This document shows, piece after piece, positions 2,351 to 50,055 of a DNA stretch of 61,668 bases. Position numbers and translations under genes: made by a program. Below the pieces are notes generated by a model, which made no database searches, was not told where the DNA came from, and saw nothing but the letters and a program-made list of their open reading frames with translations. Each line of letters opens with the position of its first letter. Positions within the stretch are counted from its first letter, which is position 1. This DNA comes from Chloroflexota bacterium (GTDB taxonomy: Bacteria > Chloroflexota > Limnocylindria > Limnocylindrales > CSP1-4): the NCBI GenBank assembly GCA_003171255.1, contig PMYK01000013.1, forward strand, positions 1 to 61,668, in the 5' to 3' direction.

Positions 2351-2391
2351 CCGATAAGTCTGAGTGAAGCGTCGCGGGCCATGCTGCGCCC

Positions 2392-11009: not shown

Positions 11010-11086
<77 letters not shown>

Positions 11087-11100
11087 ATTCGCTGCTTTCC

Positions 11101-11137
11101 AACGCCCCCGGACCGCGCCCCGGGGGCGTTCTTTGTT
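11101..11137 (+). terminator. rho-independent terminator after tRNA-Glu
   Basis: 11-bp GC-rich stem AACGCCCCCGG / CCGGGGGCGTT with an 8-nt loop, followed by CTTTGTT. Confidence 0.7.
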
Positions 11138-11291
11138 GGCCGGGCGCCGCAGCCAGGGCCCGATAGCGGCCGGCCGGGTCGCGCCGCGACGGCAGGGGAC
11201 GACTGATCCGCTGCTAGCATGGCCTTGGGACCCGTGGGCTAAGGCCAAGGCGACAGCCGGGGCCGGGCCGCACCGACACACAGGAGATGAC

Positions 11292-11984
11292 ATGGCCGAC
11301 GATCCACAGCAAGCCGGTCAGTCACCGGAAGGCGCTCCGGGAGCCTGGCCTCCGCCGCCGCAGCTAGGCTATCCGCCGCAGCTAGGCTATCCGCCGCAGC
11401 CAGACTATCCGCCGCAGCCCGGTTATCCGCCGCAGCCGGGCTTTGGGCCGCAGCCCGGCTATCCGCCGCAGCCAGACTATCCGCCGCAGCCCGGTTATCC
11501 GCCGCAGCCGGGCTTTGGGCCGCAGCCGGGGTATCCACTGCCTAGCCCCTTCGCGCCTGCCGAGATCATGCCGCCGACGCTTGCGACCCGCTTCGAGTAC
11601 GGCGGTTTCTGGATCCGTAGTGCCGCCAACTCCGTTGACATGATGGCTCTGTACGGCCTCACGATTCTCCTGGCAGTCACGATCGTCGGTCTGTTATTGG
11701 TGCCCTTCCTCTGGATCGGCTATTTCCCGTTCTTTTGGTCCCGAGGCCAGACGCCCGGCCAGAGGATCTGCGGCCTCCGACTCGTTCGCGAGATCGACGG
11801 CATGCCGATCGACGGCGGCACGGCGATAGTCCGCTACCTGGTCGTCATCGCCGAGGTCATCGGCTGTTTCTTCCTGATCGGTATCCTCGGCTTCATCTGG
11901 CCGGCCTTCGAGTCGCGCAAGCGTGCCTGGCATGACATTGCAGCCGGCACTCTATTGGTCCACGCACAGCTTTACGCGCGATAG
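11292..11984 (+). CDS. RDD family membrane protein with a Pro-rich repeat N-terminus
   Basis: ATG 11292 preceded by CAGGAG. Hexapeptide repeats PPQ[LP][GD]Y. The RDD-type core has GFWIRSAANSVD, GQRICGLRLV and WHDIAAGTLLV. Confidence 0.75.
   Translation: MADDPQQAGQSPEGAPGAWPPPPQLGYPPQLGYPPQPDYPPQPGYPPQPGFGPQPGYPPQPDYPPQPGYPPQPGFGPQPGYPLPSPFAPAEIMPPTLATRFEYGGFWIRSAANSVDMMALYGLTILLAVTIVGLLLVPFLWIGYFPFFWSRGQTPGQRICGLRLVREIDGMPIDGGTAIVRYLVVIAEVIGCFFLIGILGFIWPAFESRKRAWHDIAAGTLLVHAQLYAR
11355..11538 (+). repeat. 18-bp coding tandem repeat with a 72-bp higher-order duplication
   Basis: CCGCCGCAG-NNN-GGC/GAC-TAT units. The blocks beginning at 11399 and 11471 are identical over about 57 nt. Confidence 0.9.
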
Positions 11985-14976: not shown

Positions 14977-15052
14977 GTCCCCGTAGCTCAGCGGATAGAG
15001 CGGCCGCCTTCTAAGCGGTAGGTCGTCGGTTCGAGTCCGACCGGGGACGCCA
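14977..15052 (+). tRNA. tRNA-Arg (anticodon TCT), CCA encoded; island integration target
   Basis: Acceptor GTCCCCG/CGGGGAC, D arm GCTC-AGCGGATA-GAGC, anticodon stem GCCGC/GCGGT with loop CTTCTAA, T arm GTCGG-TTCGAGT-CCGAC. Confidence 0.92.
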
Positions 15053-15053
15053 A
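15006..15053 (+). repeat. attL: 48-bp direct repeat (3-prime part of tRNA-Arg)
   Basis: GCCTTCTAAGCGGTAGGTCGTCGGTTCGAGTCCGACCGGGGACGCCAA is identical to 50008-50055. Confidence 0.9.
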
Positions 15054-15128: not shown

Positions 15129-16049
15129 ATGCTAACAGGACATCCGGCAGTCGAAGTCGCAGGTGCCTATTCAGCCCTCCGCGACTCCTTTCGGCGCTCA
15201 CTTCGTGCCTCAAATCGCTCCACCAAGACCGAGAAGATCTACATCGGGGCGGTAGATCAGCTGGGCGCGTTCCTGGTCGGCCAAGGTATGCCAGTCGAAC
15301 CAGACGCGATCCGCAGGGAGCATGTCGAGGGTTTCTTGGTGGCTTTGCGCGAGCGCGGATTGGCGCCCGCGACCGTGTCGCAGACCTTTCGAGCTTTGCA
15401 GCAGTTCTGGAAGTTCCTGCTGGAGGAAGGCGAGATCAAGTCCTCGCCGATGGCCAACATCGGAAGGCCGCTGGTACCTGAGCAGCCCGTTGCTGTGCTC
15501 TCCCGGGCCGATCTGGAGAAGCTGCTGAAGGCGTGTGCCGGTACGACGTTCGCGGACCGTAGGGACATGGCCATCATGGCCCTCTTCATCGACACGGGCA
15601 TTCGGCGCGCCGAATGCGCTGGGCTTCGAGTTGAGGACGTCGACCTCGAACTCAACGTTGCCCGCGTCCTCGGTAAGGGCCGACGAGAGCGAACCGTCCC
15701 TTTCGGCAGAAAGACCGCGATGATCCTCGATCGCTATGTCCGAGCCAGGTCAAAGCACCGGTCCGCCGAGCTCCCCGCATTCTGGTTGGGACACGCGGGA
15801 GCGATGGGAGGCGATGGCATCTACCAGGTGGTGTCGGCCCGGGCGGAGATGGCTGGGATTAAGGTTCATCCGCATCAACTTCGACACGGCTTCGCCCACA
15901 GCTGGCTGGCAGAAGGCGGGAACGAAACCGACCTGATGCGCCTGGCCGGTTGGCGGAGCAGGTCAATGGTGGGGCGCTACGCGGCCTCGGCTGCCGATGA
16001 GAGGGCAAGGGCGGCTCACCGCAAGCTCTCGCCTATGGACCGACTGTAG
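15129..16049 (+). CDS. tyrosine recombinase/integrase (XerC/D-like)
   Basis: SAM-like N-domain, then catalytic R ([11 protein letters not shown]), HxxR (LRHGFAHSW) and GW...Y (MVGRYAAS). Confidence 0.9.
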
Positions 16050-20892: not shown

Positions 20893-22239
20893 TCATGTGA
20901 GTGACTGTGCGGCAATCCCATGACCCACGGCCGCCCGTAGCGACTCCAGCGCAGGGTACGTGCTCGTCCGTCGCTCCCGGATCGCCGACAGGGCTGCTTC
21001 GACGTCGAATGGGATAGCCCGGAGGCGCGCTGCGGCGACCCCGTCCTGGCCCTGAACCCGCAGTCTCGCTCCACCGCCGCCCGTCGAAGCCGGGTACAAA
21101 ATGAACCCACTTGCCGGGTCCGCCTCTGCTGCTTGCCGGCGCCCGTAGGCGTAGGCATAGAAGAAGACCTGGTACACGTCGGCCGGCTCGATCTTGCGCT
21201 CGTCGTAGAGCTTGTACTTGGCATCCACCGGCACGCGGCGACGCCGGCCACCTGCCACGTGCTCGAGCAGCACATCCGGGATTACCGCCGCGTACGGCCG
21301 CCATGTCGCCTCATTGAGGATCAGCGAGCGGTCGCGCCGCTGAGCCAGCACTCTGACGGTTGATCCAGCGAAGGAGTCTTCGAGGAACCGGGTGACGAAC
21401 TGCTCGAACAGCACGTTCATGTCGAGCAGGAAGGCGAACGACCGGCCACCGCCAGGAGCGAACAGATCGGCGACGCCGAGCCGCTCGATGAAGTACCGAG
21501 CGTAGGCGTGTGCAGTTCGGTAGTGGCTGTTTCGGCGGTCGTATGAGACCTCGCCAACGGCCGACGCCGGATCGAGCCCGGTGGTCGTGCAGGCATCGTT
21601 GAACACACTGTGCACCCGCGCAAGACGCCGACGCACGTCTGGATCTCTACAGACGCGGCGCGCGAGCGCGAGTCCGACCGCAAGCAGTCGATTCTCCAGA
21701 ATGTCCGTCTCGAGCTCGTCGAACCTGCACTCGAGGCGATCGACGCGCCCGAAGTGGCGCTCCACCTGCTCGGCGGGCAGCAGACGGCCGCGAACGGCGG
21801 GAAGTGTCTCCTCATGCGCAACGTAGTCCTGAAGGAGGCCGTCCCGGATGATGCGCTCGCTCGACTCGGCTAGTAGGAGGCCAAGCAGGTCCACCAGCCG
21901 TCCGGCCGGCGCCACGGCAAGTTGACGTACCGCGCCGAACCGGGCGAGAGCACCGAGTCCACTCGCGTAGTCGATCATCTCGATGACCCCGAGGTTGCCG
22001 CCCACAAGCTTGGGGACGACGCGGACCTCGAAGCCCTCGAACCTGACCACTCCGACCCACGAGGTGGGGCGCACGCGAACACCGGCCACCAGTTCGTCGA
22101 CGACCAGCCGCCCTTCGCCATCGCCGAGCGCGGCCGCCAGGAGCCGATCACGCTCGCTTAGCGTCACTCCCGGGAGGATCGCGGCCGGCTCCCACTCGCT
22201 GAACTCAAAGGTCGGCCACTCGGCGGCGACGACCTTCAT
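20893..22239 (-). CDS. mcrC: McrC-like subunit of a McrBC type IV restriction system
   Basis: Size, an ATGA overlap with the upstream AAA+ McrB-like gene, and a C-terminal PD-(D/E)xK-like segment (IPDVLLE...VPVDAKYK). Confidence 0.75.
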   Translation of the reverse strand: MKVVAAEWPTFEFSEWEPAAILPGVTLSERDRLLAAALGDGEGRLVVDELVAGVRVRPTSWVGVVRFEGFEVRVVPKLVGGNLGVIEMIDYASGLGALARFGAVRQLAVAPAGRLVDLLGLLLAESSERIIRDGLLQDYVAHEETLPAVRGRLLPAEQVERHFGRVDRLECRFDELETDILENRLLAVGLALARRVCRDPDVRRRLARVHSVFNDACTTTGLDPASAVGEVSYDRRNSHYRTAHAYARYFIERLGVADLFAPGGGRSFAFLLDMNVLFEQFVTRFLEDSFAGSTVRVLAQRRDRSLILNEATWRPYAAVIPDVLLEHVAGGRRRRVPVDAKYKLYDERKIEPADVYQVFFYAYAYGRRQAAEADPASGFILYPASTGGGGARLRVQGQDGVAAARLRAIPFDVEAALSAIRERRTSTYPALESLRAAVGHGIAAQSLT

Positions 22240-24818
22240 TCGGGCTCTGCCTCTCCTTGAGACGGGGCGCCCGGCTGGAACTCAGCGAGAAGGGCACTGA
22301 GCAGCTCGGAGGGGTCCTCGAGCTTCTCGGGCACAACCCGCTGCTCATCTACGTCCACCAACGCGGGCCCAAGGTAGGTCACAAGCTCGCGGTAGTCCTC
22401 GAAGGCGTACTCCTGAAGTAGCGGCAGGATCTCGTGCCGGAAGCGCGCCGCGAACAGGCTGGCTTCAGCTATTGGCTGATCCCCGTCCATCAGGAACGAA
22501 TGGCCGATCTGCTTCTCTCGACCTTCGACGCGCGCAATCCGGCGGTTGAGCTCACCAAGGAACGCAGCCAGTTCCAGCCCGCCGACGCGCGCTCCCTCGA
22601 GAAGACTCGTGTCAGGCATGAGCTCGATGAAGGCGAAGCGGCGACGGAGAGCCGAGTCAAGCAGGCGGATTGACCGATCGGCCGTGTTCATCGTGCCGAG
22701 CAGGAAAACGTTCGGTGGGATCGAGAACGTCTCACGACTTTGGGGCAGCACGACCGAGAGACCACGCTTGTCGAGTTCGATTAGCGTGATGAGCTCACCG
22801 AAGATCTTGGGCATGTTGCCGCGGTTGATCTCGTCGATCAGCAGGAGGAACGGTTGCTCGGGCTTGGCCTGCGCCGCGCGACAGACTCGCTTGAAGACCC
22901 CGTCGACGAGCTGCAGGTCGAGTTGCCCGGTGCCGGTGGCGACCGGCTTGTAGCCCTCTACGAAGTCCTCGTACGTGTACGAGGGGTGGAAGGTCACGCG
23001 AGTAAGCGCCCCGATCGTCTCGGTCGGCCCGAGCTGGAGTAAACCGAGCGACGAGTCGCGGTCGGCCAGCCATGAGAGAAGGTAGTCGGCCTCCTCGCCG
23101 GTGAGCGCGAAGAGAGTCCCCTGGTTGCGGAACTTGAGAGGCTCGCTCTTGGCCAGCTCGGTCGACTTCAGGAGCTCGTCATACGTCGGCCCGTTGGCCA
23201 CATGGGCTACTGGCTCGAGCGTGATCACCGGGTTTTCTCCGACGGTATGCAGGCCCTCGCGAACCTTCGCCAACGCGACGATCCGCTTGTCAGGGTTGGC
23301 CTGGTAGCCGATGACGAGATCGCCCGGTTGCACGAGCGGATAGTTCCGCTGGAGGCGACCGTAGCGGTAGTCGACGGAGCCCTCCTTGAAGATCTGGTCC
23401 CAGCTCCATTCCTTCGGGTTCGCGACCACCCACCAGACGCGGCGCTCGGCCTGCGCCGTCGAGAGTGTCCGCTCGGCTCTCGCGAAAGCCGCCGGGTCAC
23501 CCAGGAGATGGTCCGTGTCGAGCCCGGCGCGCTGAGCGAGCCACCAGACGCTGAAGCGGCGGGCGCTGTACGTCTTGCCGGTTCCGGGCGGCCCGTAGAG
23601 GATCGCCTGACCCTTCCGGCGAAGAGCCCCGTCGATGACGCCGAAGATGGGATCTGGCGGCACGACGGGCTGCTCCACCTTGGCCTTGCCGGCCGACTCC
23701 TTCACGACCGACCGGCCCGCCAGGATCCGCTGGTACTCGGCCTGGCCGATCGGGGCCACCGTCTTGAACGCCCACCGCTTGATCGGGTCGATCGAGCGCG
23801 CCTGCCTCTCGTCCCACTTGACGCGGACGGTCTGGCCAAAGCTCGGCAGATCCTCTCGTCGCTCGTACCCGGGTTCGACGACTGCGCCGATGGCGAGGAC
23901 CTCAGAAGTCCCGCGATTCGCCACGACGAGATCGCCTGGTTCGAGCTCAGTCAGAGTCCAGACCTCGTTCGCCTTCTCCGTGATCTTCGCTTGGTTGCCC
24001 TTGTACAGAGCTCCGAACGCCTCGGCGAAACGAGCCCGGAACTCTTCCTTGGAGGGATAGTCACGTAGGTCGCCGACCTCATCCCAGCCGACGCGGATGT
24101 ATCCGTTGGTCAGGCAGTCGTCCCAGAGCTCGGCGTTGTGTCCGGGGGCTATCTTGACGATCCGGGCGGTCTTGCCGGGATGGCTCCAGTGGTATAGGAA
24201 GCGTTCGATCTCGATCGTCGACCAGCCGGCGAACTCAGGACGCTCGCGCACGAGCTGCGTGAGCTTGTAGGCACCAGGCACGCCCCAGGGGATGTCACCT
24301 TCACCCTTGAGCAGCGCCCAGAAGTGCTCGAGATGGGTGTGTGAGTTGATCGGAAGCAGCTGATCCGGGAAGTAGGTGTGGATCGTCTTCGTGGTGAGGG
24401 CCGGCGCCCAGTTGATGGGCTCTATGTCGCCGATCGCGACAAGGTCGCCGGCCGCGGCCAGTTCGAGGGCACGCACGAACCCCGCGCGGGTTGCCGTCCA
24501 CGCCTCCTCCAGGTTCGAGAACCGGCGGTCAAACCACCATTCGCCGGTTCCGCGCCGCTTGAAGATGAGGAGCTTCCGCGAGGACCCGCCTGAGATGCTC
24601 CCGAGGTCCGGGGTCGCGAACTCCATCGCGTAGCAGTAGCTCTCGGTGGAGTTTTCTGTCCCGAGCGCGTATCTCTCGACGGGCATGTCCGGCCACGACT
24701 CCCGGGGGAAGCGGGCCAGAACATCCGCACGTTCGGCCTCGGCCGCCTTGACCCCTTTGGCATCGCCCTCACGTGACCAGGCTGCGAGTGCCTCTTCGAG
24801 CGTCATTGGCGTGCTCAT
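22236..24818 (-). CDS. mcrB: McrB-like AAA+ GTPase/ATPase with extra PUA/EVE-like reader modules
   Basis: Walker A ILYGPPGTGKTY, Walker B FLLLIDEINRGN, and the McrB signature LGTMNTADRS. An EVE-like segment (RVWWVVANPKEWSWDQ...GDLVIGYQANPDKRIVALAKV) sits between Walker A and Walker B. A second beta-barrel-like module lies upstream (IVKIAPGHNAELWDDCLTNGYIRVGWDEVGDL). Confidence 0.8.
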   Translation of the reverse strand: MSTPMTLEEALAAWSREGDAKGVKAAEAERADVLARFPRESWPDMPVERYALGTENSTESYCYAMEFATPDLGSISGGSSRKLLIFKRRGTGEWWFDRRFSNLEEAWTATRAGFVRALELAAAGDLVAIGDIEPINWAPALTTKTIHTYFPDQLLPINSHTHLEHFWALLKGEGDIPWGVPGAYKLTQLVRERPEFAGWSTIEIERFLYHWSHPGKTARIVKIAPGHNAELWDDCLTNGYIRVGWDEVGDLRDYPSKEEFRARFAEAFGALYKGNQAKITEKANEVWTLTELEPGDLVVANRGTSEVLAIGAVVEPGYERREDLPSFGQTVRVKWDERQARSIDPIKRWAFKTVAPIGQAEYQRILAGRSVVKESAGKAKVEQPVVPPDPIFGVIDGALRRKGQAILYGPPGTGKTYSARRFSVWWLAQRAGLDTDHLLGDPAAFARAERTLSTAQAERRVWWVVANPKEWSWDQIFKEGSVDYRYGRLQRNYPLVQPGDLVIGYQANPDKRIVALAKVREGLHTVGENPVITLEPVAHVANGPTYDELLKSTELAKSEPLKFRNQGTLFALTGEEADYLLSWLADRDSSLGLLQLGPTETIGALTRVTFHPSYTYEDFVEGYKPVATGTGQLDLQLVDGVFKRVCRAAQAKPEQPFLLLIDEINRGNMPKIFGELITLIELDKRGLSVVLPQSRETFSIPPNVFLLGTMNTADRSIRLLDSALRRRFAFIELMPDTSLLEGARVGGLELAAFLGELNRRIARVEGREKQIGHSFLMDGDQPIAEASLFAARFRHEILPLLQEYAFEDYRELVTYLGPALVDVDEQRVVPEKLEDPSELLSALLAEFQPGAPSQGEAEPE

Positions 24819-25266: not shown

Positions 25267-26562
25267 CTATGCCGGCCAGTTGATCGTCTGGTCGAGTGGC
25301 ATCGGACCCCAAGCCGGATCTTTGCCAGGGAACCCGGTTGGCGGCTTTGCGCCGTCGTATCGCCACTCATCGGGCGGGGGCTTAGCCGAACCGATCGCGA
25401 AGCACCATCCCGAGACCGTTTGCCGCCAGGCATACCAAGCCTTGCGATCCTTACGGACTACCAGGTGAATGCCATGCTCATCGGGGAGACCGCATACAGT
25501 GAAGTCGCTATTGTTGAGCTTCCCGAGCATGTCGTGGTGGTATCCACCGCCAGGGTTGGAGTACCAGCTTCCTTGGCAACTCGCGATCCATTCCAGGGCT
25601 TCGCGGGTTTCCTCGAACTCCCGCTCGTCGAGCTGTCGGCCCTCTTCGTCCGTCCCGATCAAGCCAGCGTTGTCACGCAGGCGATCGGCCACGCGCTTCT
25701 TGGCGGCTTCAGCCTCGCGTATCGACCGGCGGTAGTCGGCAACGATCTTGAGTCCTTCGCGCACCGACTTCGTCCGGGCGAGCTCCCAGCACGCCTTCGT
25801 GGCAGCCAAGGAGTCCATGTCGCGCGCAGCCAGACGGAACCCGAGAACAAGGGCCGTCTTTGCCCTCCAGCCGATCGGAGAATACGAGTTGCTCACCGTC
25901 ATCCGGGTCACCGCCGACTCGTAACTCAGCAGCAAGCTAAACGGATAGATGAACGGGAGTACTGCGAGTGTCAGCCAGATCGGGAGCAGGAGCGAAAGCC
26001 CGAGGTCCAGACCGTCTAGATCCGACAGCTGCGTACCGACTGTCCAGGTGACGTATCCGAGGAGGGCAAGGCCAATCAGCGCCGACATTCGATCGGCGAG
26101 CCGCTTCGCGGGCGCGAGCTTGGGGTTGTACTTGCCCGTTGCCGAGGCAATCACGACGATCGCGATGACCGGCTGAAGCAGGAACTCAGCCCAAAGCGGA
26201 AAGAGTGCGAGGTTCATGTAGAACCCGACGAAGACGCTGATGCCGACGGTCCGACGGGCGGTTCGCCGGTAGAAGCCTGGCTTCGCGGAGTCGCGGTTGC
26301 CGAACAGGAGGGGCAGGCCGACGGTGACCAACCAGATCAAGGTGTCCTTGGACAGACTCGTGTTCCACAAGCCAAACGCCCTGGCAGCCAACACGGCGAC
26401 GGCGACGTAGCCGACATAGGCCAGCACCGACACGATGATCGATCGAACCATGAAAGCGCGGACCAAATCCCCGATTGTCTTGCGCGCTCCTGGTCTCGGA
26501 AGGGCAACCGCGAGGATCACTCCGACCCACAGAACTGATGCGAGCTCGCGATTCGTCAGCAT
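25267..26562 (-). CDS. polytopic membrane protein with a coiled-coil and a Trp/His-rich soluble C-terminal domain; function unknown
   Basis: ATG 26562 is preceded by AGGAGGGG. It has about 6-7 hydrophobic helices, then a charged helix (REAEAAKKRVADRLRDN), then a roughly 120-aa domain (SWYSNPGGGYHHDMLGK...WYAWRQTVSGWCF). Confidence 0.6.
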   Translation of the reverse strand: MLTNRELASVLWVGVILAVALPRPGARKTIGDLVRAFMVRSIIVSVLAYVGYVAVAVLAARAFGLWNTSLSKDTLIWLVTVGLPLLFGNRDSAKPGFYRRTARRTVGISVFVGFYMNLALFPLWAEFLLQPVIAIVVIASATGKYNPKLAPAKRLADRMSALIGLALLGYVTWTVGTQLSDLDGLDLGLSLLLPIWLTLAVLPFIYPFSLLLSYESAVTRMTVSNSYSPIGWRAKTALVLGFRLAARDMDSLAATKACWELARTKSVREGLKIVADYRRSIREAEAAKKRVADRLRDNAGLIGTDEEGRQLDEREFEETREALEWIASCQGSWYSNPGGGYHHDMLGKLNNSDFTVCGLPDEHGIHLVVRKDRKAWYAWRQTVSGWCFAIGSAKPPPDEWRYDGAKPPTGFPGKDPAWGPMPLDQTINWPA

Positions 26563-26769
26563 TCGTACCCCTCCTGCTAGCAGTCTAGCGAGGACCCACG
26601 TATCCGACGACGGTGAGCTGAAACACGATCGCTCTGACGGAATAGAGACGCGAGCCACGAGGAAACGGCATCGCTAAGCGACGTCAGAAAGGGGTCCTGC
26701 CATCGCGGGGATCTTCCGAGGCCCTCAGCGCGTGGGGCCAGACATCGACGTTGGCGTCGTAGGCGCGCG

Positions 26770-26897: not shown

Positions 26898-27668
26898 TTA
26901 AGACTCAAGAATGCGTTCTACGTCCTCCACTGCCAGGGTGGCGGTTCGCACCGCGTGAACCGTGAATGCCAGGGCTAAGGTGTCATCGGCCGACGCCTTC
27001 ATCACTTGGCCGCCTGGCGCTACCCCAGGTCCGACTGGCGTTGTCGCAAGGAGAAGAGAAGCCCAGGGCCGGCTGTGCGCGAAGCTGCTGGCGATCGAGT
27101 AGTTGGTCTCTCCCTGATCGCCCGGCCGATTCGAGTACTGTCGGAAGAGGTCCGTAAGGTTGATCCCAGTAAGCGCACGCAGGCCCAGCGCCGTAACTTC
27201 GGCATCGAGGTCCGCTATCCGATCCGCCGCGCCTTTGGCCGGCGGAACAGGCTTTGCCTTAAGGATCTCCTCGACGCGACGCCTCTGTCTGTAATCCTCG
27301 CGCAGCCAGGAAGCAGCGCGAGCCAGTTGCTCCTCGGGCTGAACCGTTGGATCTACCAGCCAGCGGGCGACGACGCTTGATTCCATCGACGCTCGAAGCA
27401 GGGTCATGTGAGCCGACGACGGCTGAAGCCCGTTTGCTATCACATGGCGCCACGTGATCAGATGGTCGAGTGAGTTGGCTACTTGGACCATAGCGGCCCG
27501 CGCCGGCTCAGCGCCGAGTAGGGTCGACATAGCCAAGTCGGCCCTGGCCCTGGAGCCCGGTGCGAACTCTGAGAGTGAGTTGAAGGCCTCGCATCGCTCC
27601 CGCAGAACATCAACGACCGCCAACGTGGCCAGCATTTGTCCCGTGATCGCCGCGTCCTGTGTCGCCAT
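26898..27668 (-). CDS. all-alpha hypothetical protein, divergent from the SLATT cassette
   Basis: Good coding bias. No catalytic motif recognised. Confidence 0.5.
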   Translation of the reverse strand: MATQDAAITGQMLATLAVVDVLRERCEAFNSLSEFAPGSRARADLAMSTLLGAEPARAAMVQVANSLDHLITWRHVIANGLQPSSAHMTLLRASMESSVVARWLVDPTVQPEEQLARAASWLREDYRQRRRVEEILKAKPVPPAKGAADRIADLDAEVTALGLRALTGINLTDLFRQYSNRPGDQGETNYSIASSFAHSRPWASLLLATTPVGPGVAPGGQVMKASADDTLALAFTVHAVRTATLAVEDVERILES

Positions 27669-27893
27669 GGCGCCAGTCTATCGGGCAGCCCGAGCGGTGT
27701 AACGACATCATCTCTTCTCGTGCAGCGGCGCGCCTCTCCGGCGGCGGCAAGACGCAAGACGAAGGATCGAGTGCACGGGGACGTTGCAACGACGTCCGGA
27801 GTGCATTCCGCCGACCCGCCCTGTTGTTTGACACCTGGCGTCGTGGCATCAAACTGAAGGTCAGCGAGCAACCGTCACTCGCGGGGGAGGCCC

Positions 27894-28478
27894 ATGAACG
27901 AAGTGGATCGTATTACTGCACTCCGGCGTGAACTGTCGGACGAGGCCCAGAGGCTGGCCATTGACGCCGAGTACACCGGCCGCCAGCACCTGATGGCCGG
28001 CCAGCGATGGCGACGGTGGGCGTTCAGGATCGGTCTGCCCGCAGCGATCCTGGCCGCATCGGTTGGTTCGGGTGCCGCAGGGCTCACAGCACTCTTTGGT
28101 GCGGATGCGCGGATCACTGCAGTTATTGGTTTTGCCGGCGCGATCGTTGGCGGCATTCGCCTCTTTGTGAAAGCGGACGACCAAGCGGCTGCACACAGCA
28201 CCAAGGGGGCTCAGTACCTCGCCATCCGTGGAGAAGCTCGCCGCTTCCGCAAGATCGACCTGAACAGCGATGGTGACCATTCCGTGCTCACCAAGCAGCT
28301 CCACGATCTCGCAACCCGGCTGGATGCCCTGCGGGAAGTGGAGCCACGCGAGTTGCCGCCCGGCATGTACGAGAAGGTGAAGAACCAGATCAAGAATGGG
28401 AACTATTCGTACGAGAACGATCCGCTCTGGGAGCACGAGGGGGAGCCACGTGGCGACGACGGTCACAAAGGCGTTTGA
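27894..28478 (+). CDS. SLATT-like two-TM effector candidate
   Basis: ATG preceded by GGGGGAGG. An N-terminal helix is followed by two adjacent TM helices (AFRIGLPAAILAASVGSGAAGLTALF and ITAVIGFAGAIVGGIRLFV), then a helical C-terminus. Lies immediately upstream of, and overlapping, the SMODS-like genes. Confidence 0.6.
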   Translation: MNEVDRITALRRELSDEAQRLAIDAEYTGRQHLMAGQRWRRWAFRIGLPAAILAASVGSGAAGLTALFGADARITAVIGFAGAIVGGIRLFVKADDQAAAHSTKGAQYLAIRGEARRFRKIDLNSDGDHSVLTKQLHDLATRLDALREVEPRELPPGMYEKVKNQIKNGNYSYENDPLWEHEGEPRGDDGHKGV

Positions 28479-29319
28479 CGAACTACTAGCTAACCTGCGA
28501 CTTACGGAATACGAAGAGAGCATGGCTGCCGGCCGTGTTCGGAACGTCCAGAAGATCCTGACCGAGAGCTACACCTGTGCTCAAAACCCCTGGGCGATAG
28601 GGTCCTACGGACGCCAGACTCTCGTCAGATGGAAGCGCGACATCGACATGATGGTCGCCTTCGGTGACGTTTACTGGCCGACCTACCAGTACGACTCTCG
28701 GTCCTTCCTGTACGCCGTCCGAAACGTCCTGAACAAGGCATACGGGAACACGGACGTGAGCAGCAAGCAGGTCGCCGTCAGGATGCTGCTAACTGGCGGC
28801 CTTCAGGTCGATCTCGTCCCCACGTTCGTGTGTGCCTCCGGCGGTTTCTACATGCCCGACGGCCGGAAGGGCTGGAAGAAGACCAACCCTCCGTATCACG
28901 ACACCCTGATGACGGACGCAAACGTTCGTCTGGGATCAAAGCTGAAGCCGGTCGTGCGCCTGATGAAGGCGTGGAACCACGTGAACGGCCGGCACCTCCA
29001 CTCGTTCCACCTGGAAATGGTTGTCGAGCGAATGTGGCGAAATGCGACTGCGTTGCCGGCGACTCCTGCGGCACTATGCGAGAGCCTCCGTGCTGCCTCG
29101 TCGTGGGTTGCGTCCAGTCTTGCGGATCCCTGGACCGGGTCTAGCGAGATGCTCGACGCATACCTGAACGCCGACGAGCGGGCTCTCACGGTGCGCCTCT
29201 TGAAGGAGGACGCCGCCCGCGCCAAGGACGCGCTCAAGCTGGCCGAGGATGGCGAGATGGTCAAGGCGTTTGAGCGATGGAACGTCGTCTTCAACAAGCA
29301 GTTCCCCGCGTACGGCTGA
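28450..29319 (+). CDS. SMODS/CD-NTase-like nucleotidyltransferase, paralog 1
   Basis: Pol-beta NTase core IGSYGRQT...DIDMMV...VDLVP. C-terminal KPVVRLMKAWN...SFHLEMVVERMW. The GTG 28450 start (RBS GAGGGGGAG) overlaps the SLATT gene by 29 nt. The ORF is open from 28396. Confidence 0.7.
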   Translation: MATTVTKAFDELLANLRLTEYEESMAAGRVRNVQKILTESYTCAQNPWAIGSYGRQTLVRWKRDIDMMVAFGDVYWPTYQYDSRSFLYAVRNVLNKAYGNTDVSSKQVAVRMLLTGGLQVDLVPTFVCASGGFYMPDGRKGWKKTNPPYHDTLMTDANVRLGSKLKPVVRLMKAWNHVNGRHLHSFHLEMVVERMWRNATALPATPAALCESLRAASSWVASSLADPWTGSSEMLDAYLNADERALTVRLLKEDAARAKDALKLAEDGEMVKAFERWNVVFNKQFPAYG

Positions 29320-30236
29320 TGTCGCGCACAGTGTCGGCCGCCTTCAACGCTTTGCTTTCCGATCTGCAGCTGACGCCTCGACAACGTGAGCTCGCGCAGG
29401 GACGGATCATGCACTTGCGCCGGTTCTTCGCCGCCTACGCCTTGAGCCGCGAACCCTGGGCGATCGGGTCTTACGGCCGCGGAACCGTGATCCGTCGAGA
29501 ACGCGACGTCGACGTCATGGTTGTTCTGGCGGCCAAACCCTACGTCGATCGCTTCCGTCGAGACTCTCGAGCCTTTCTGTATTGGCTGCGAGACGCGCTG
29601 AACGTCGAATACGCGAACACCAGGGTCAGCACACGCAAGGTTGCTTTGTGCATGGACCTTGGCGACGGCCTTGGAGTCGACCTGGTGCCAGCGTTCGACG
29701 TCATTGAGGTGAAGGGACTCTCATGGCTCACCAGAAGACCCCTCGCCACACCCGGAGAGATGGGTTTCTACATCCCGAACGGCAACGGCGGTTGGCAGAT
29801 TACGAACCCGGCGCACCACGACGCGCTCATGCAAGCCGCAGACGTGAGACTGGCCAGCAAGCTCAAGCCGCTCGTGCGTCTCATGAAGCTCTGGAACCGG
29901 GGAGAACACGACCGGCTGAGGTCATTCCATCTCGAGATGATGGTTGAACGCGCGTGGCGCAAGACGACACAGATGCCTCCGCTTCCAGTGGCGATGAGGC
30001 ACACACTGGAGGCCGTGGCTGGCCTGACCAACCACGAGTTCTCAGACCCGTGGCCACAAGGCGGACGCCTGGATCAGTACATTGACGGGGAGACTCGCCG
30101 GAAAGCAGTGAAGGCGCTGCGGGACGACGCGCAACGGGCGACCGACGCACTTGCGTACGAGAACTCTGGCAACCAGAGGGCTGCGTTCGACCGATGGTCA
30201 GTCGTCTTTGGTCGGGACTTCACAGGGTACGGGTGA
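29319..30236 (+). CDS. SMODS/CD-NTase-like nucleotidyltransferase, paralog 2
   Basis: IGSYGRGT...DVDVMV...VDLVP and KPLVRLMKLWN...SFHLEMMVERAW. ATG 29319 overlaps the TGA of paralog 1 (TGATG). Alignable with paralog 1 over its full length. Confidence 0.7.
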   Translation: MSRTVSAAFNALLSDLQLTPRQRELAQGRIMHLRRFFAAYALSREPWAIGSYGRGTVIRRERDVDVMVVLAAKPYVDRFRRDSRAFLYWLRDALNVEYANTRVSTRKVALCMDLGDGLGVDLVPAFDVIEVKGLSWLTRRPLATPGEMGFYIPNGNGGWQITNPAHHDALMQAADVRLASKLKPLVRLMKLWNRGEHDRLRSFHLEMMVERAWRKTTQMPPLPVAMRHTLEAVAGLTNHEFSDPWPQGGRLDQYIDGETRRKAVKALRDDAQRATDALAYENSGNQRAAFDRWSVVFGRDFTGYG

Positions 30237-30525
30237 CGCCAGCGCAGCCAGGAGCCGCCAAGCGAAACGTCAATCTGTCCGCACGGTCGAGGCGAAGAGC
30301 CCGAGTCGCCAGGTCCGGCAGGCCGAGCGGACCGCGACGCGGCTGCGATGGCGGCCGAGCTTCATTTGGCACCGCTCGGGCGCGAAGCACGATAAGTTCG
30401 AGCTTCGGCCGGCTGGCACCGAAGTTGCAGCGGCCGAGTCCTCGCCCGCGCCGAAGTCCGGGTCCGAGAGGGCTCGCTGAGCGGCTATCCTTGGCTCGTC
30501 AGTAGAACAACCGCAGGGGGTCTAA

Positions 30526-33686: not shown

Positions 33687-36670
33687 CGGTGTCCGAGCGC
33701 GGGTTCGAGGAAGCGATCACCGCCAGCCTGGTCGAGCAGGGCGGATACCGCGTCTGCAAATGGGGTACGAAACCGGAGTGGTCGGCCGACTTCGATCGGG
33801 TGCGCGGACTCGACACTGCAGAGCTGTTCGCTTTCCTGGCCGAGACGCAGCCCAAGGTTTGTGAGCGGCTGGTAGCGGTTCACGGAGGCGAAGCCGGAGC
33901 TCATCAGCAGTTCGCGGATCGACTGGCCAAGCAGATCGACGAGCGCGGCACGGTCGACGTCCTGCGACATGGCGTCAACGACCACGGCATCGAAGTCCGT
34001 CTAGCGTTCTTCAAGCCGGCCCACGGGCTCACACCCGAGCTGACCGAGCGATACCTCGCCAACCGCCTCACAGTCACGCGCCAGCTCGCGTACGAGCCGG
34101 CGGCGGCGAGGACCCTCGACCTGTGCCTCTTCGTCAACGGCATCCCGGTCGCGACGGCCGAGCTGAAGAACCCCCTCACGCACCAGACCGTCGAGCACGC
34201 CAAGCACCAATACCGAACCGATCGCGACCCGGCCAACGTCACTCTCGGCCGTCGGGCGCTGGTGCATTTCGCCGTCGATCCCGAGTCGGTCGAGATGACG
34301 ACCCGACTCGCAGGCGAGAAGACCGGCTTCCTGCCCTTCAACCGCGGCAACGCTGGCGGCAAGGGCAATCCTCCCGATCCCGATGGCCACCGAACTCGAT
34401 ACCTCTGGGAACAGGTCTGGGCTCACGACGCCTGGCTGGACCTGCTGGGCCGGTTCATCCACGTCGTGCCGGGCGAGGGTTCGACCCATGCCGCCAAGAT
34501 GCGCTCCGGCTCCACGATCTTCCCGCGCTACCACCAGTGGGACGCCGTCCGAAGGATGGAGGCGGCAGCACGCGAGGAAGGGTCGGGCCAGAGCTACCTC
34601 GTCCAGCATTCCGCGGGTTCCGGCAAGTCGAACACAATCGCCTGGCTCGCTCATCGGTTGATGTCGCTGCACGGCCTCGACGATCATCCGGTCTTCGACA
34701 AGGTCGTGGTGATCACCGACCGGGTCATCCTCGACCGCCAGCTGCAGGAGACGATCTTCCAGTTCGAGCACGCGACTGGCGTAGTGACGCCCCTCTTGCA
34801 AGACAGCACGCAACTCGCCGACGCGCTCAACGGCGACCAGTTCCGGATCGTCATTACGACGCTGCAGAAGTTCCCGTTCACGCTCGACAAGGTCAAGGAT
34901 CTCGGCCACCGGCGCTTCGCGGTCATCGTCGATGAGGCCCATTCGAGCCAGACGGGCGAGGCGGCGAAGGATCTGAAGGCTGCCCTCGGATCGGCCTCGA
35001 TCGAGGCGCAACTGGCCCTAGCCGAGCAGACCGAGGCCGCGACGACGCCGCCCGATCTCCAGGACGCTCTCGCCTCGACTGTCGCTGCGCGTGGCCGCCA
35101 GCCGAACTTGTCCTTCTTCGCCTTCACCGCGACCCCGAAGGGTCGGACCCTCGAGCTGTTCGGCCGGCTGAATGCGGAGGGCGTGCACGTGCCCTTCCAC
35201 CTGTACTCCATGCGCCAGGCAATCGAGGAGGGCTTCATCCTCGACGTGCTAGCCAACTACACGACCTACAAGCTGTACTGGAAAGTCGGCAAGGCAGTCA
35301 CCGACGACCCCGTCTACGAGAAGCGCCGAGCACGCCGGTCGATCGCCCGCTTCGTTTCGCTGCACCCGCACAACATCTCTCAGAAGGCGGAGATCATCGT
35401 CGAGCACTTTCGCGAGCACACACGCCGCAAGATCGGCGGCAGGGGCAAGGCGATGGTCGTGACCAGCTCGCGCCTGCACGCCGTCCGCTACAAGCAGGCG
35501 ATCGACCGCTACATCGCGGAGCACGGCTACTCCGACACCCGCGCGCTCGTGGCCTTCTCCGGCAAGGTGGACGACGCCGGCATCGACTTCAGCGAGTCCG
35601 GCATGAACGGCTTCCCCGAGTCGCAGACCGCGGCCCAGTTCGGCGGGCCGGAGTTCGGCGTGTTGATCGTGGCCGAGAAGTTCCAGACCGGCTACGACCA
35701 GCCGCTCCTGCACACGATGTTTGTCGACAAGACGCTCGTTGGGCTGGCCGCGGTCCAGACGCTGAGCCGTCTCAACCGGATCCATCCCGAGAAGAACGAC
35801 ACGTTCGTGCTCGACTTCCGAAACGAGGCCGAGGCGATCACCGAGGCGTTCGCGCCCTGGTATGAGACTACCGTCGCCGAGCCGACCGACCCGAACCTGC
35901 TCCACGACCTGGCGGACCGTCTTCTCTCGCTTCAGGTGCTCGATGACGTGGAGGCGCGGGCCGTGGCCGCGCTCATCGCCGACAGGACCAAGAAGATCAG
36001 CGACCACGGCGCCGTGTACGCGCAGTTGGCGCCGGCCGTGGAACGGTTCAAGGCCAAGCGCCCCGAGGAGCAGGACGAGGTCCGCGACGCTCTCGACCAG
36101 TTCGTCCGTGCCTACTCGTTCCTCAGCCAGGTCGTGGACTTCGGCGACATCTTCCTCGAGGCACTGTATCTGGCCAGCCGGGCGCTGCAGGCGTTGCTGC
36201 CGTCGGAGGGTGGCGGACGGCTGGACCTCGGATCGGAGATAGAGCTGACGCACCTGCGCCTCGAGAAGACCGGCGAGGGCGACATCGGCCCGGACACGGG
36301 CACAGGCGAACTGAAGGCGATCTACTCAGGCGAAGGCAAGCAGGCCGAGGAAGAGCAGGAACGCCTGTCCGCGATCATCTCCGTGCTCAACGACCACTTC
36401 GGCACCGCCCTCGGTCCGGCCGATCAGCTGTTCTTCGACCAGTTGGAGACGACGTGGCTCGGCGACGAGCAGCTAGTCGCGCAGGCTCGCGCCAACCCGA
36501 TCGAGAACTTCAAGCTCGTCTTCGCGGACGTCTTCCTCAAGAGCATCGCGGGCCGCATGGACGACAACGCTGACATCTTCCAGCGCATCCTCGACGACCC
36601 CGCGTTCCAGTCGATCGTGATGAACCACTACCTGCGCCGCGTGTTCACGCAGGCACGGGCGACCTCGTGA
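33683..36670 (+). CDS. hsdR: Type I restriction enzyme R subunit
   Basis: N-terminal nuclease region with DLCLFVNGIPVATAELK (PD-(D/E)xK), helicase motif I HSAGSGKS, motif II VIVDEAHSSQ, and a long C-terminal helical domain. Confidence 0.9.
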   Translation: MTVSERGFEEAITASLVEQGGYRVCKWGTKPEWSADFDRVRGLDTAELFAFLAETQPKVCERLVAVHGGEAGAHQQFADRLAKQIDERGTVDVLRHGVNDHGIEVRLAFFKPAHGLTPELTERYLANRLTVTRQLAYEPAAARTLDLCLFVNGIPVATAELKNPLTHQTVEHAKHQYRTDRDPANVTLGRRALVHFAVDPESVEMTTRLAGEKTGFLPFNRGNAGGKGNPPDPDGHRTRYLWEQVWAHDAWLDLLGRFIHVVPGEGSTHAAKMRSGSTIFPRYHQWDAVRRMEAAAREEGSGQSYLVQHSAGSGKSNTIAWLAHRLMSLHGLDDHPVFDKVVVITDRVILDRQLQETIFQFEHATGVVTPLLQDSTQLADALNGDQFRIVITTLQKFPFTLDKVKDLGHRRFAVIVDEAHSSQTGEAAKDLKAALGSASIEAQLALAEQTEAATTPPDLQDALASTVAARGRQPNLSFFAFTATPKGRTLELFGRLNAEGVHVPFHLYSMRQAIEEGFILDVLANYTTYKLYWKVGKAVTDDPVYEKRRARRSIARFVSLHPHNISQKAEIIVEHFREHTRRKIGGRGKAMVVTSSRLHAVRYKQAIDRYIAEHGYSDTRALVAFSGKVDDAGIDFSESGMNGFPESQTAAQFGGPEFGVLIVAEKFQTGYDQPLLHTMFVDKTLVGLAAVQTLSRLNRIHPEKNDTFVLDFRNEAEAITEAFAPWYETTVAEPTDPNLLHDLADRLLSLQVLDDVEARAVAALIADRTKKISDHGAVYAQLAPAVERFKAKRPEEQDEVRDALDQFVRAYSFLSQVVDFGDIFLEALYLASRALQALLPSEGGGRLDLGSEIELTHLRLEKTGEGDIGPDTGTGELKAIYSGEGKQAEEEQERLSAIISVLNDHFGTALGPADQLFFDQLETTWLGDEQLVAQARANPIENFKLVFADVFLKSIAGRMDDNADIFQRILDDPAFQSIVMNHYLRRVFTQARATS

Positions 36671-37434
36671 CGGTCTCGGACCGCGATCGCAAGATGCTGT
36701 GGGCATTGGCCAGGAACCAGTGCGCAATCTGCAAGATCGAGTTGGTCCGGGCAGCGCGTGGAGGCTCGGCGCCGCTTGTGGTGGGGGAGGAGTGTCACAT
36801 TGCCAGCCCGCGAGGTAACGTGCCACGTGGCACCTCTGATCTGCTGGGGGCAGCGCCAGACAGCTACGAGAACCTGATACTGCTATGCCCGTCTGACCAC
36901 GCGGTCATCGACAAGGCAGAAGAGCAGTATCCGCCGGAACGACTCAGGAGGATCAAGGCCGAGCACGAAGCCTGGGTCAAGACCTCACCTAACGCCATCC
37001 CCGCCCCGCTCAAGATCCGGCGCGGCGCCCCGGCCGTCCTGATCGAAGTGGAAGATGGCCCACAGCTTCTCGCTCTGGTTTGCGGGTGCCACGAGACCAG
37101 CTTGGACCACGAACCCTTGGCCTCTCAGGACGAGGTCGACCTTGTGGGCGGCTTCCTCCAACTCCTGTTCGACACCAACGACCTCTGGAGCGAAATGGAA
37201 CCGGCGTGGCGATGCCAGACCGGCTTCGGAGTCGACAGGCATCTGGATGGACTGCGCGACAGTGGATGGCGCGTGTTTGCGGCGCGGGCTCACGGCCAGC
37301 TGGTTGGCGGCGTCGAGCCTCAGCCAACCACGTGGGATACCGGCTACGTGCGTGTCGTAAGGGCAAACAGCCCTGAGATCTTCCGGATGGACCCAGCCAG
37401 CCGAGAGAGTGGCGTTGTCTCCGCTACCAAGTGA
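36667..37434 (+). CDS. HNH-motif nuclease-like protein, translationally coupled to hsdR
   Basis: CAICK...ECHIAS...NLILLCPSDHAVID (Cys pair plus H-N-H pattern). GTG 36667 overlaps the hsdR stop (GTGA). The C-terminal roughly 150 aa are of unknown function. Confidence 0.6.
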   Translation: MTVSDRDRKMLWALARNQCAICKIELVRAARGGSAPLVVGEECHIASPRGNVPRGTSDLLGAAPDSYENLILLCPSDHAVIDKAEEQYPPERLRRIKAEHEAWVKTSPNAIPAPLKIRRGAPAVLIEVEDGPQLLALVCGCHETSLDHEPLASQDEVDLVGGFLQLLFDTNDLWSEMEPAWRCQTGFGVDRHLDGLRDSGWRVFAARAHGQLVGGVEPQPTTWDTGYVRVVRANSPEIFRMDPASRESGVVSATK

Positions 37435-38299: not shown

Positions 38300-39718
38300 C
38301 TAGTACCCGTTCAGTTTCAGCGCCCGATAAGAGCTGCTCGCTCGTCGGATAGATTCCTCGACCGCGCCCTCCGGGAAGCCAAGCTCGGTCAGGAGGCACG
38401 CTTCGACGAGCACCGTGAGCCGCTCGTTCATGGGCCAGAGTTCCACCCCGGTTGTGGCGCCTGCCCCGCGAACCTCATCCCAATGCGTGTGGTAGTTCCG
38501 CGTCAAGGCCACCTCATCTCCGAACTGCCTCGGGTTCTCGCTCACGACATCGCCCAGCATCCAGCGGTGGGCTGCAACGAGGCGGTTCAGGCGATCCGCC
38601 AGGGTGAAGTCGTTAGCCGCCTTCTTGAGGGGTAGGCCAGCCCATTTGCGGTCCTTGGCTGAGAGCGTCGCCAGCACTCGTTTGACTCGGTCCTCGTGGG
38701 TTTGCGGGTCGGTTGGGTGGCCGCCGACGCGGATGCGATGGAAAGCCTCGAGCGCCTGTGTGAGGTTCAGGAGCCGATGTTCTTCGTACAGGCGGTGCCG
38801 CCTCCGCGTAGCCAAGTAGAGCTCTAGGACCGGGCGCAACTCCTTCCAGGCGCGAAGCCACGCCCCAAGGATCTGGTCTAGGGGAATGGGCGGGTTGGCT
38901 GCCGTGAACAGGATCTCGTGCGGGAGCAGCACGTGATCTCTGGGCGGCTGCGGAGGCTCGCCACGCCATAGCAACTCGACCCGAAGGTCAGGTTCTGCTG
39001 ACGACGGGCCCTTGAAGGCGACGCTTTCCATGACGCTGGGTTCGCCTGTCACTAGGCACATCAGGCTCGCCAGGGGCGTGATGTAGGACGACAACCAAAC
39101 GTCGGGCGCTATAGGCTCATCGAGGCGGAATACTGCTCGCGCCTTTCGGACAATCCGGCGCTCACGCCACCGGTCGCCTGCTAGGCTGACGTCGAGACCG
39201 ACGGTGAGCGTGCCTCCGGGGAAGGGGATCACCGTCTCGTCATCCCGACTGGCACTCAACTTCATGCCGATCGGGCGGGTATCGCGGAAGATCCACTCCT
39301 CTTCGATGGCGTCGCGGCCAAGAAAGTCGATCAGGAACTCGACCTGAACATCGGCGCCTCGAAACGTCGGCGGTTCCGGCCCGAAGTGCATCCCGACGTA
39401 GGCGCGTTGTGCCTGGAGCTCGATACTGGCGTCCCCTGGCGCCGCGAAGTGAACCTGCCGCAGCGAAACGTGGACACCTTCCAGGCTGACAAGCTTGTTG
39501 TCGCTCGTCCGTCCCAGGACAAGAGGATGGCGGACGAACGATCCCCCGAAGTGCGGAAGGATGTTTTCAGGGGTCGCTGGCTCCAGCAGCCCAGTGCCTG
39601 TGACCACGGGCGATTCATCCCAGGCGCTGTGCAGCGTGCCCGTGACGATTTCTTGCTGGCCGGGTAGCCACCACCGGCCACCCATCTCCCCGATGAACAT
39701 GCTTGCATGATGACTCAA
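38300..39718 (-). CDS. ApeA-like protein with a C-terminal HEPN-type R-x4-H motif
   Basis: The N-terminus GEMGGRWWLPGQQEIVTGTL resembles ApeA N-terminal domains. The C-terminal helical domain contains LTRNYHTHWDE (R-x4-H). Confidence 0.5.
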   Translation of the reverse strand: MSHHASMFIGEMGGRWWLPGQQEIVTGTLHSAWDESPVVTGTGLLEPATPENILPHFGGSFVRHPLVLGRTSDNKLVSLEGVHVSLRQVHFAAPGDASIELQAQRAYVGMHFGPEPPTFRGADVQVEFLIDFLGRDAIEEEWIFRDTRPIGMKLSASRDDETVIPFPGGTLTVGLDVSLAGDRWRERRIVRKARAVFRLDEPIAPDVWLSSYITPLASLMCLVTGEPSVMESVAFKGPSSAEPDLRVELLWRGEPPQPPRDHVLLPHEILFTAANPPIPLDQILGAWLRAWKELRPVLELYLATRRRHRLYEEHRLLNLTQALEAFHRIRVGGHPTDPQTHEDRVKRVLATLSAKDRKWAGLPLKKAANDFTLADRLNRLVAAHRWMLGDVVSENPRQFGDEVALTRNYHTHWDEVRGAGATTGVELWPMNERLTVLVEACLLTELGFPEGAVEESIRRASSSYRALKLNGY

Positions 39719-50007: not shown

Positions 50008-50055
50008 GCCTTCTAAGCGGTAGGTCGTCGGTTCGAGTCCGACCGGGGACGCCAA
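50008..50055 (+). repeat. attR: 48-bp direct repeat (duplicated 3-prime part of tRNA-Arg)
   Basis: Exact copy of 15006-15053. The upstream tRNA 5-prime half is absent here. Confidence 0.9.

Follow-up and report, generated by a model that had tools for sequence, protein, structure and literature searches.

The closest described relatives of the locus reported here are Type I antiphage systems based on cyclic-oligonucleotide signaling (CBASS) that pair a cGAS/DncV-like nucleotidyltransferase (CD-NTase, or cyclase) with a small SLATT membrane protein. EcCdnF04-SLATT6 is an experimentally validated system of this kind, and strong phage defense has been shown for SLATT-type Type I CBASS operons (bioRxiv 10.1101/2023.05.21.541620). 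We analyzed a 61,668-nucleotide stretch of DNA (the window; contig PMYK01000013.1 of GenBank assembly GCA_003171255.1, from a Chloroflexota bacterium), which carries three co-directional, tightly coupled genes on its forward strand at 27894..30236, as read from the open reading frame (ORF) list and the raw sequence: a SLATT gene followed by two CD-NTase genes, here called NTase-1 and NTase-2. Like EcCdnF04-SLATT6 and EcCdnF05-SLATT6, the cassette joins CD-NTase to a two-transmembrane (2TM) SLATT protein of ~170–200 aa and has no Cap2, Cap3, HORMA, or TRIP13 genes; since it consists of cyclase and effector only, without these accessory genes, it is by gene content a Type I CBASS. It departs from the EcCdnF-SLATT6 systems in that it has two coupled, diverged cyclases, in that its effector is SLATT_4 and not SLATT_6, and in that its cyclases are closest to clade D/C structures, whereas EcCdnF belongs to clade F. 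The sole defining feature of Type I that it lacks is the restriction to a single cyclase gene per operon. Type I CBASS that uses a SLATT effector being already known, what appears to be new is the presence of two cyclases on one effector. A preliminary description of this DNA, made from its letters alone, had not recognized the layout as described, and our search agrees with it: no account of two cyclases sharing one CBASS effector was found in the searchable literature, in which the only match concerned two catalytic aspartates of a CD-NTase; foundational surveys outside it may hold an earlier passing mention.

The SLATT gene (27894..28478, +; 194 aa), whose product is a predicted pore-forming CBASS effector, is preceded by a Shine–Dalgarno-like GGGGGAGG at 27883..27890 (+), seven bases 5′ of its ATG as read from the sequence. 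The NTase-1 gene (28450..29319, +; 289 aa) most likely begins at GTG 28450: its ORF has an earlier in-frame ATG at 28396, and we place the start at the GTG because the PADLOC cyclase profile begins there (residue 19 of the longer ORF) and a GGGGGAG run precedes it. With this start, NTase-1 overlaps the SLATT 3′ end by 29 nt, and the NTase-2 gene (29319..30236, +; 305 aa) starts on the ATG within the TGATG that ends NTase-1; by these junctions, the three genes of the operon are translationally coupled. The tight coupling of a SLATT gene to two full-length nucleotidyltransferase genes, proposed in the preliminary description, is therefore confirmed, and gene calls in independent assemblies of the same organism (loci L134 and L135) reproduce the 194-, 289-, and 305-aa products exactly. 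A terminator-like GC-rich hairpin with a T-rich tail (30340..30357, +), ~100 nt past the NTase-2 stop, possibly marks the end of the cassette transcript; it is a consensus match only, from a scan that returned 4 sites where 2.0 were expected. The promoter scan gave no sigma-70-like promoter. The operon holds three genes only, flanked by McrBC, two ORFs without matches, and HsdMSR. The earlier statement that SAVED, SLOG, Cap2, and Cap3 are missing holds for the operon and for the two upstream neighbors tested, in which neither these nor HORMA gave a match; it is less secure for the rest of the island, which was partly scanned.

The SLATT protein matches NCBIfam SLATT_4 (NF033632) with 80.7 bits (9.6e-23; cutoff 55) over profile positions 1–153 of 154. 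The PADLOC CBASS “2TM” effector models PDLC00712, 00710, 00677, and 00706 all match it at 1e-28 to 5e-10, PDLC00712 at 1.1e-28 over profile positions 10–167 of 171. Two hydrophobic segments lie at residues ~46–70 and ~72–95, and the AlphaFold2 model (predicted local distance difference test, pLDDT, 69.6) is all-helical, with helices at residues 3–64, 72–120, 129–148, and 158–167 and no beta-strands. Pfam SLATT families gave no match, even at E ≤ 10; since NCBIfam SLATT_4 does match, we read this as a gap in Pfam sensitivity and not as non-membership of the SLATT superfamily. A fold search of the Protein Data Bank (PDB) with the SLATT model returned generic helical bundles only (best E 0.49), and phmmer against the PDB was uninformative. 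The preliminary description had regarded an effector without a nucleotide-sensing domain as unusual, a view that does not stand: because the protein aligns end to end with the PADLOC CBASS 2TM models, the lack of a separate sensor domain is, by this alignment, the normal state of the SLATT/2TM class. Seventeen SLATT homologs were collected, and SLATT_4 is matched by 7 of the 8 SLATT-position genes tested in related loci, the exception being the gene call in L049. Neither the length nor the domain layout of the SLATT protein changes between one- and two-cyclase loci. In L049 (the same locus as L050), the SLATT frame (4353..4998) is split over two frames beside IS110 and DDE transposases, a sign of decay.

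Both cyclases score above the gathering threshold of Pfam SMODS (4.2e-19 for NTase-1 and 1.6e-11 for NTase-2) and match the PADLOC cyclase model PDLC00823 over its full length (2.9e-62 and 4.9e-57). Together with the SLATT_4 match, these are the SLATT and SMODS/CD-NTase profile hits that the preliminary description had anticipated. Against the NCBIfam equivalog CBASS_cyclase_b (NF041117), the two proteins reach 139.7 and 141.5 bits, under the 200-bit cutoff, which by score makes them relatives of that family and not members. They are 42% identical to each other by BLASTP (4e-87). The AlphaFold2 model of NTase-2 (pLDDT 93.1) finds Pseudomonas aeruginosa CdnD as its best Foldseek match in the PDB (6p8u/6p82; E 6.5e-19, TM score 0.74–0.80, 23–24% identity), with BfCdnB and EcCdnC as the next closest solved structures (16–24% identity across the three), in what is a nearest-structure comparison. 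A phmmer search of the PDB with the cyclases agrees with the fold search and places PaCdnD and EcCdnC first (~1e-10). These two enzymes (6p82, 6p8j, 6p8u, and 6p80) are the best matches in sequence and in fold and have the same catalytic architecture; unlike the window cyclases, they belong to Type III CBASS, are controlled by HORMA/TRIP13, and are paired with NucC, and such genes were not found here. In work by Ye and colleagues from 2020, clade D and clade C CD-NTases reportedly make cyclic trinucleotides.

The catalytic residues G51, S52, D64, D66, and D121 (NTase-1 numbering) are present in both paralogs. Across 78 relatives, drawn from the lineages defined below (54 from pos1, 5 from pos2A, and 19 from pos2B), the G-S pair, the DxD motif, and the third Asp are invariant, as are N146, K173, S185, H187, and E189. 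Both cyclases are intact and apparently active enzymes, in agreement with the preliminary description, which had counted two intact synthetases. The possibility that one of them is a pseudo-enzyme was considered and rejected, the catalytic residues being invariant in every lineage.

Relatives of the cassette were gathered by protein searches (84 matches for NTase-1 and 58 for NTase-2), by a scan of one genome per GTDB species, by a metagenome scan, and by exact-protein look-ups, and the loci (numbered with the prefix L) were scored with a hidden Markov model of the cyclase clade and with the SLATT protein. The order SLATT–cyclase–cyclase was found in 12 distinct loci of environmental genomes, including the window, vs. 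7 single-cyclase loci of the same clade; conservation of the three-gene order in other genomes, which the preliminary description had named as a check, is now an observation. Both cyclases are complete in the window (=L134/L135), L049 (=L050), L051, L056 (=L058), L057, L136, L137, L138 (=L139), and L140. The first cyclase is cut by a contig end in L066 and L067, and the second is split by a frameshift in L060 (=L062). Three further pairs may exist, each suggested by two homologs that seem to share a contig, as judged by its length. The single-cyclase loci with enough flanking sequence to judge are L001, L002 (=L061), L052 (=L053/L054), L063, L064, L068 (=L072), and L070 (=L071), among which L068 carries a 4TM effector instead of SLATT. 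The closest relatives L052, L001, and L002, like the Streptomyces loci L004–L011, have exactly the two-gene layout of SLATT Type I CBASS; all of the Streptomyces loci, which are more distant (31–35% identity), combine SLATT with one cyclase. Plasmid and phage collections yielded only distant cyclase homologs (≤31% identity). The neighbors of the cassette include BREX in L052, AbiE with Type I restriction–modification in L140, and transposases in L049, and the cassette, judged from these contexts, behaves as a mobile defense module. On the distribution of relatives, the two-cyclase layout is an old, conserved family and not a one-off or a local accident. The frameshift in the L060/L062 second cyclase (3952..4828) is identical in two metagenome contigs and is a sign of decay.

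Position-labeled cyclases were arranged in a tree built by neighbor joining only (200 bootstraps), which resolves four lineages. Lineage pos1a holds the first cyclases of the window (that is, NTase-1), L056, L057, L137, L138, and L140 and the single cyclase of L052 (bootstrap 57%); pos1b holds the first cyclases of L049, L051, L060, and L136 and the singles of L001, L002, L064, and L065 (80%, or 92% without L136). Second cyclases fall into pos2A (the window, with NTase-2, and L056, L057, L137, L138, and L140; 100%) and a pos2B core (L049, L051, L066, L067, and L136, with the single of L063; 100%). The lineages pair regularly, pos1a with pos2A and pos1b with pos2B. Partners within a locus are 45–48% identical and orthologs between loci about 60–70% identical; because identity within loci is lower than identity between them, the duplication would long predate the divergence of the loci, and the pair is, from this pattern, inherited as a unit. 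A recent local duplication is rejected by the tree and by the 45–48% identity within pairs. The two cyclase genes meet at TGATG in five loci and overlap by 4 nt in another two (together the window, L051, L056, L136, L137, L138, and L140). Loss has followed repeatedly, as shown by single-cyclase loci that nest within the pos1 and pos2B lineages and by the frameshifted L060 second copy. L052 carries a lone pos1a cyclase, 74% identical to NTase-1, beside a SLATT gene whose product is 83% identical to that of the window, and lone cyclases stand beside SLATT genes in pos1b (L001, L002, and L064) and in pos2B (L063).

Based on these comparisons, our favored reading, to which we give an even chance, is a Type I CBASS abortive-infection module in which two independent sensor-synthases serve one SLATT effector. 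Each cyclase would be inactive until it detects its own phage-derived cue, and either would then make the same, or a cross-recognized, cyclic oligonucleotide. This nucleotide would bind the cytoplasmic helices of the SLATT protein, which would oligomerize and permeabilize the inner membrane, so that the cell is killed or arrested before phage release. The insertion-bearing, strongly basic paralog, NTase-2, is a candidate sensor of a different, possibly nucleic-acid, ligand. Phages evade Type I CBASS in an operon-specific manner, and operons with closely related CD-NTases have their escape in common (bioRxiv 10.1101/2023.05.21.541620), which points to the cyclase as the part that senses; a second, diverged cyclase would then be expected to widen the range of phage cues and to make escape by a single mutation harder. 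This family offers a natural experiment on how minimal Type I CBASS cyclases recognize phage infection: two diverged, apparently active cyclases share an effector, and near relatives have lost one copy or the other. Such an experiment bears on whether the cyclase alone sets trigger specificity, on whether CD-NTases form heteromers, and on whether duplication yields broader or escape-proof immunity.

The main rival is an obligate heteromeric synthase, in which NTase-1 and NTase-2 form a heterodimer or hetero-oligomer whose single product is read by the SLATT protein; in variants of it, the two active sites build a mixed or longer oligonucleotide step by step, or one of the subunits acts as a regulator of its partner. 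We consider this unlikely, although it accounts for the conserved gene order and translational coupling with TGATG or a 4-nt overlap in seven loci, for the regular pairing and co-divergence of the lineages, for the conserved charge asymmetry and the lineage-specific insertion beside the active site described below, and for the retention of both active sites. Against it, single cyclases of pos1a, of pos1b, and of pos2B are each found beside a SLATT gene that is nearly identical, the second copy in L060/L062 is frameshifted while the first is intact, the closest solved relatives, PaCdnD and EcCdnC, are single-cyclase enzymes, and our literature search gave no report of a CD-NTase heteromer. We favor independent cyclases over an obligate heteromer because lineages from both positions occur alone with SLATT; this speaks for one cyclase being enough to drive the effector, at least in these lineages (pos1a, pos1b, and pos2B). 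The heteromeric or two-signal system that the preliminary description had suggested is accordingly possible but is not the best supported, given the cyclases of L052 and L063 that stand alone with SLATT.

Several observations weigh against two independent cyclases on one effector. No pos2A cyclase was seen alone with SLATT among the collected loci. The conserved order and the TGATG/ATGA junction of nearly all loci would fit a stoichiometric complex equally well, as would the regular lineage pairing and the basic/neutral asymmetry. Single-cyclase relatives are mostly basic, which hints that in the pairs one function may be split between two proteins. The deep nodes of the neighbor-joining tree are weak (31–62%), and such a tree fits either one duplication or two. 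Finally, the locus counts come from peptide-pattern-seeded scans and short contigs and are not an unbiased census.

Further evidence on the division between the cyclases comes from their alignments. NTase-2 carries an insertion region of ~16 residues (29697..29762, +) that immediately follows the strand bearing the third catalytic Asp and is modeled by AlphaFold2 as a low-confidence loop (pLDDT 63–65). The homologous insertion is found in the second cyclases of the window, L056, L057, L137, L138, and L140, in P0056 and P0064, and in the first cyclase of L136 (L136_p1); NTase-1 and the other lineages are without it. Insertion-bearing cyclases have net charges of +5 to +17 (NTase-2, +11), their partners −2 to +6 (NTase-1, +6), and most single-cyclase relatives +7 to +16, and pos1a and pos2A differ by fixed residues at seven positions. 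The insertion and charge pattern, a correlation across ~30 sequences, suggests a division of labor between the paralogs. The L136 first cyclase (1960..2877) is the most basic of the set (+17) and has the pos2A-type 16-residue insertion, with a pos2B-type partner; its insertion may be either ancestral or transferred. A test of this protein as a chimera placed it nearest to pos1b from end to end and gave no clear recombination breakpoint.

These lineage-specific changes bear directly on the idea that the second cyclase is redundant, a leftover either of tandem duplication or of a second CBASS operon whose effector was lost, and alters dosage only. Repeated loss would fit such a copy, as seen in the seven single-cyclase loci of the clade and in the frameshifted L060/L062 copy, and adjacent complete CBASS operons do occur elsewhere (L023, L102, and possibly L142). 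Yet the paralogs, only 45–48% identical, keep every catalytic residue in all lineages; pair, order, and junction are retained where orthologs have diverged to 57–70% identity; and one lineage has acquired specific conserved changes (insertion, charge, and seven fixed substitutions). We therefore hold redundancy to be very unlikely. If the pair were simply redundant, the cassette would be a modest addition to the catalog of CBASS architectures.

Most other multi-cyclase loci look like two complete systems side by side. In the Bacteroidetes loci L023 (5998..8961) and L102 (3380..6891), a PDLC00820 cyclase with E2 and 4TM genes lies beside a second cyclase of model PDLC00769, accompanied in L102 by a 2TM gene of its own; side-by-side systems of this kind recur in more than 20 scanned loci. 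There, each cyclase apparently has its own effector and matches a different PADLOC model, whereas the window cyclases are paralogs of one clade that share one SLATT protein. The Rhizobium plasmid pRspNXC24a (L142, 768..4525) carries a DncV-like cyclase, a 4TM gene, a second cyclase, and a 172-aa ORF without a PADLOC or NCBIfam match; it has at least one effector, the 4TM protein, and may similarly comprise two side-by-side systems. A marine contig (L083, 2426..5039) on which a 4TM effector gene precedes two successive cyclases, and which ends right after them, may represent an analogue that arose independently.

A third alternative gives the two cyclases separate outputs. In it, SLATT receives the signal of NTase-1, and the insertion-bearing NTase-2 either sends its own signal to a recurrently linked multi-TM protein of ~430 aa or is under the control of that protein, which would act as another membrane effector or as a sensor located in the membrane. 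The gene for this protein, a candidate linked gene, lies upstream of the cassette (25267..26658, −). Its ORF is 463 aa long, and the alignments of all homologs begin at query residue 33, which makes M33 the probable start (near 26562) of a protein of ~431 aa. Five to six TM helices are predicted, together with a coiled coil and a C-terminal domain that is conserved and rich in W, C, and H, and the protein has no match in Pfam, PADLOC, NCBIfam, or the PDB. A full-length homolog (48% identity) is the immediate upstream neighbor of the SLATT gene in L140, and another (43%) is the immediate downstream neighbor of the second cyclase in L137; L059 has a fragment upstream of the SLATT gene, and L136 has frameshifted remnants upstream. 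Among 1.84 billion representative proteins searched, the family comprised 3219 clusters, and the second and third closest to the window protein are those whose representatives correspond to the L140 copy (91% identical) and the L137 copy (identical). The closest homolog (70%) lies on a 3.3-kb contig (L145) that ends 200 nt upstream of its gene; an RDD-family gene is its neighbor there, and another RDD gene lies just outside the window island.

From this recurrence, the multi-TM protein is a candidate partner of the cassette, as second effector or as membrane sensor for the insertion-bearing cyclase. The two-effector alternative is helped by the fact that the multi-TM gene abuts the cassette in the window, L140, L137, and L059 and as remnants in L136, with a position and orientation that vary; that the L140 and L137 copies rank so close to that of the window among 1.84 billion representatives; and that every locus with a full or remnant multi-TM gene and a visible second cyclase has an insertion-bearing cyclase. 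Multi-effector Type I CBASS also exists, for example VvCdnG09-CapV-Cap5 (bioRxiv 10.1101/2023.05.21.541620). However, the gene is absent from L056 and L138, which have the same cyclase pair and ample flanks; the family is very large, as its 3219 representative clusters attest, with distant members on Haladaptatus and Arcobacter plasmids that have no cyclase or SLATT nearby; no nucleotide-binding domain is recognizable in the protein with Pfam, PADLOC, NCBIfam, or the PDB; and in the window the gene is on the opposite strand, with another gene between it and the cassette. We consider this arrangement quite improbable, whether the protein is taken as effector or as sensor. The broader proposition that the cyclases are not interchangeable, either as an obligate heteromer with a novel product or as two arms (one that runs from NTase-1 to SLATT, and one that connects NTase-2 with the multi-TM protein in either direction), is somewhat unlikely in our judgment. 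Were the two-arm arrangement true, four genes would make up the actual unit, a CBASS with two inputs or two outputs that has not been described so far, and a link to CBASS would give a large unannotated family its first functional handle.

Two active cyclases on one effector would also be compatible with opposing inputs, as in a guard or decoy arrangement. Here, one constitutive cyclase would make a nucleotide that restrains the effector or serves as bait, its depletion by phage sponges or nucleases (Acb1, Acb2, or Tad-like) would release the effector, and the other cyclase would be a conventional activator. Inhibitory or decoy signaling with membrane effectors is known in Panoptes (PMC12657218, PMC12657230), in which the mCpol enzyme OptS is paired with the S-2TM-beta protein OptE, a small nucleotide-controlled effector that disrupts the inner membrane, in defense islands (PMC12657218). 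The window cassette resembles Panoptes and Cap15-type CBASS in its small membrane effector, predicted to be nucleotide-controlled, and in its defense-island setting. It differs from Panoptes in having CD-NTases in place of mCpol and an all-helical SLATT protein in place of a 2TM effector with a beta-barrel sensor; neither Panoptes component is present here, and inhibitory logic is not indicated. Positive activation is implied by the single-cyclase relatives, whose SLATT protein is essentially the same, and no sequence feature speaks for constitutive activity. We regard the guard arrangement as highly improbable, and independent activation of SLATT by either cyclase continues to be the reading that we favor.

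The cassette lies within a ~35-kb integrative island at a tRNA-Arg gene. After tRNA-Arg(TCT) (14977..15052) comes a tyrosine integrase gene (15129..16049), and 48 nt of the tRNA 3′ half recur as a direct repeat at 15006..15053 and 50008..50055, with zero such matches expected by chance. G+C content is 0.62–0.66 inside the island vs. 0.68–0.70 outside, and an Rfam scan returned two tRNAs and no other match. Upstream of the cassette are McrC (PF10117, 1.3e-41) and an McrB-like AAA_5/EVE protein, and downstream are HsdM, HsdS, and HsdR, so the nucleotide-signaling cassette does sit in a defense island between McrBC and a Type I restriction–modification system, as the preliminary description had it. 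The McrB-like GTPase (22236..24818, −; 860 aa) has PADLOC PD-T4-1 and PDC-S02 regions and an EVE domain N-terminal to its AAA_5 motor, which suggests a modified-base reader fused to McrB.

Between the multi-TM and SLATT genes lies a 256-aa ORF (26898..27668, −) with no family match. A homolog, 36% identical, occupies the same divergent position upstream of SLATT in the single-cyclase locus L064; the ORF was considered as a component of the system and set aside, since recurrence in L064 only is too weak. A gene for a Cap5-type HNH nuclease (36667..37434, +; 255 aa), whose start overlaps the hsdR stop, was likewise considered as a second CBASS effector. Its residues 1–106 form the HNH domain (PADLOC PDC-M68A, 3.7e-22; PDB 9om4 and, for Cap5, 7rwk/8fm1), and its C-terminal ~150 aa gave no match and are not recognizably SAVED. 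It was rejected on the grounds that only the HNH domain matches, that it is coupled to hsdR, and that no cassette-adjacent homolog occurs in L001–L133. Farther downstream, an ApeA-like HEPN gene (38300..39718, −), one more defense gene of the island, matches Pfam ApeA_NTD1 and HEPN_Apea and the PADLOC candidate system PDC-S58 (2.4e-42). Just outside the island are tRNA-Glu(CTC) (11010..11086), the RDD-family membrane protein gene mentioned above (11076..11984), and an N6_N4 DNA methylase gene (13128..14681).

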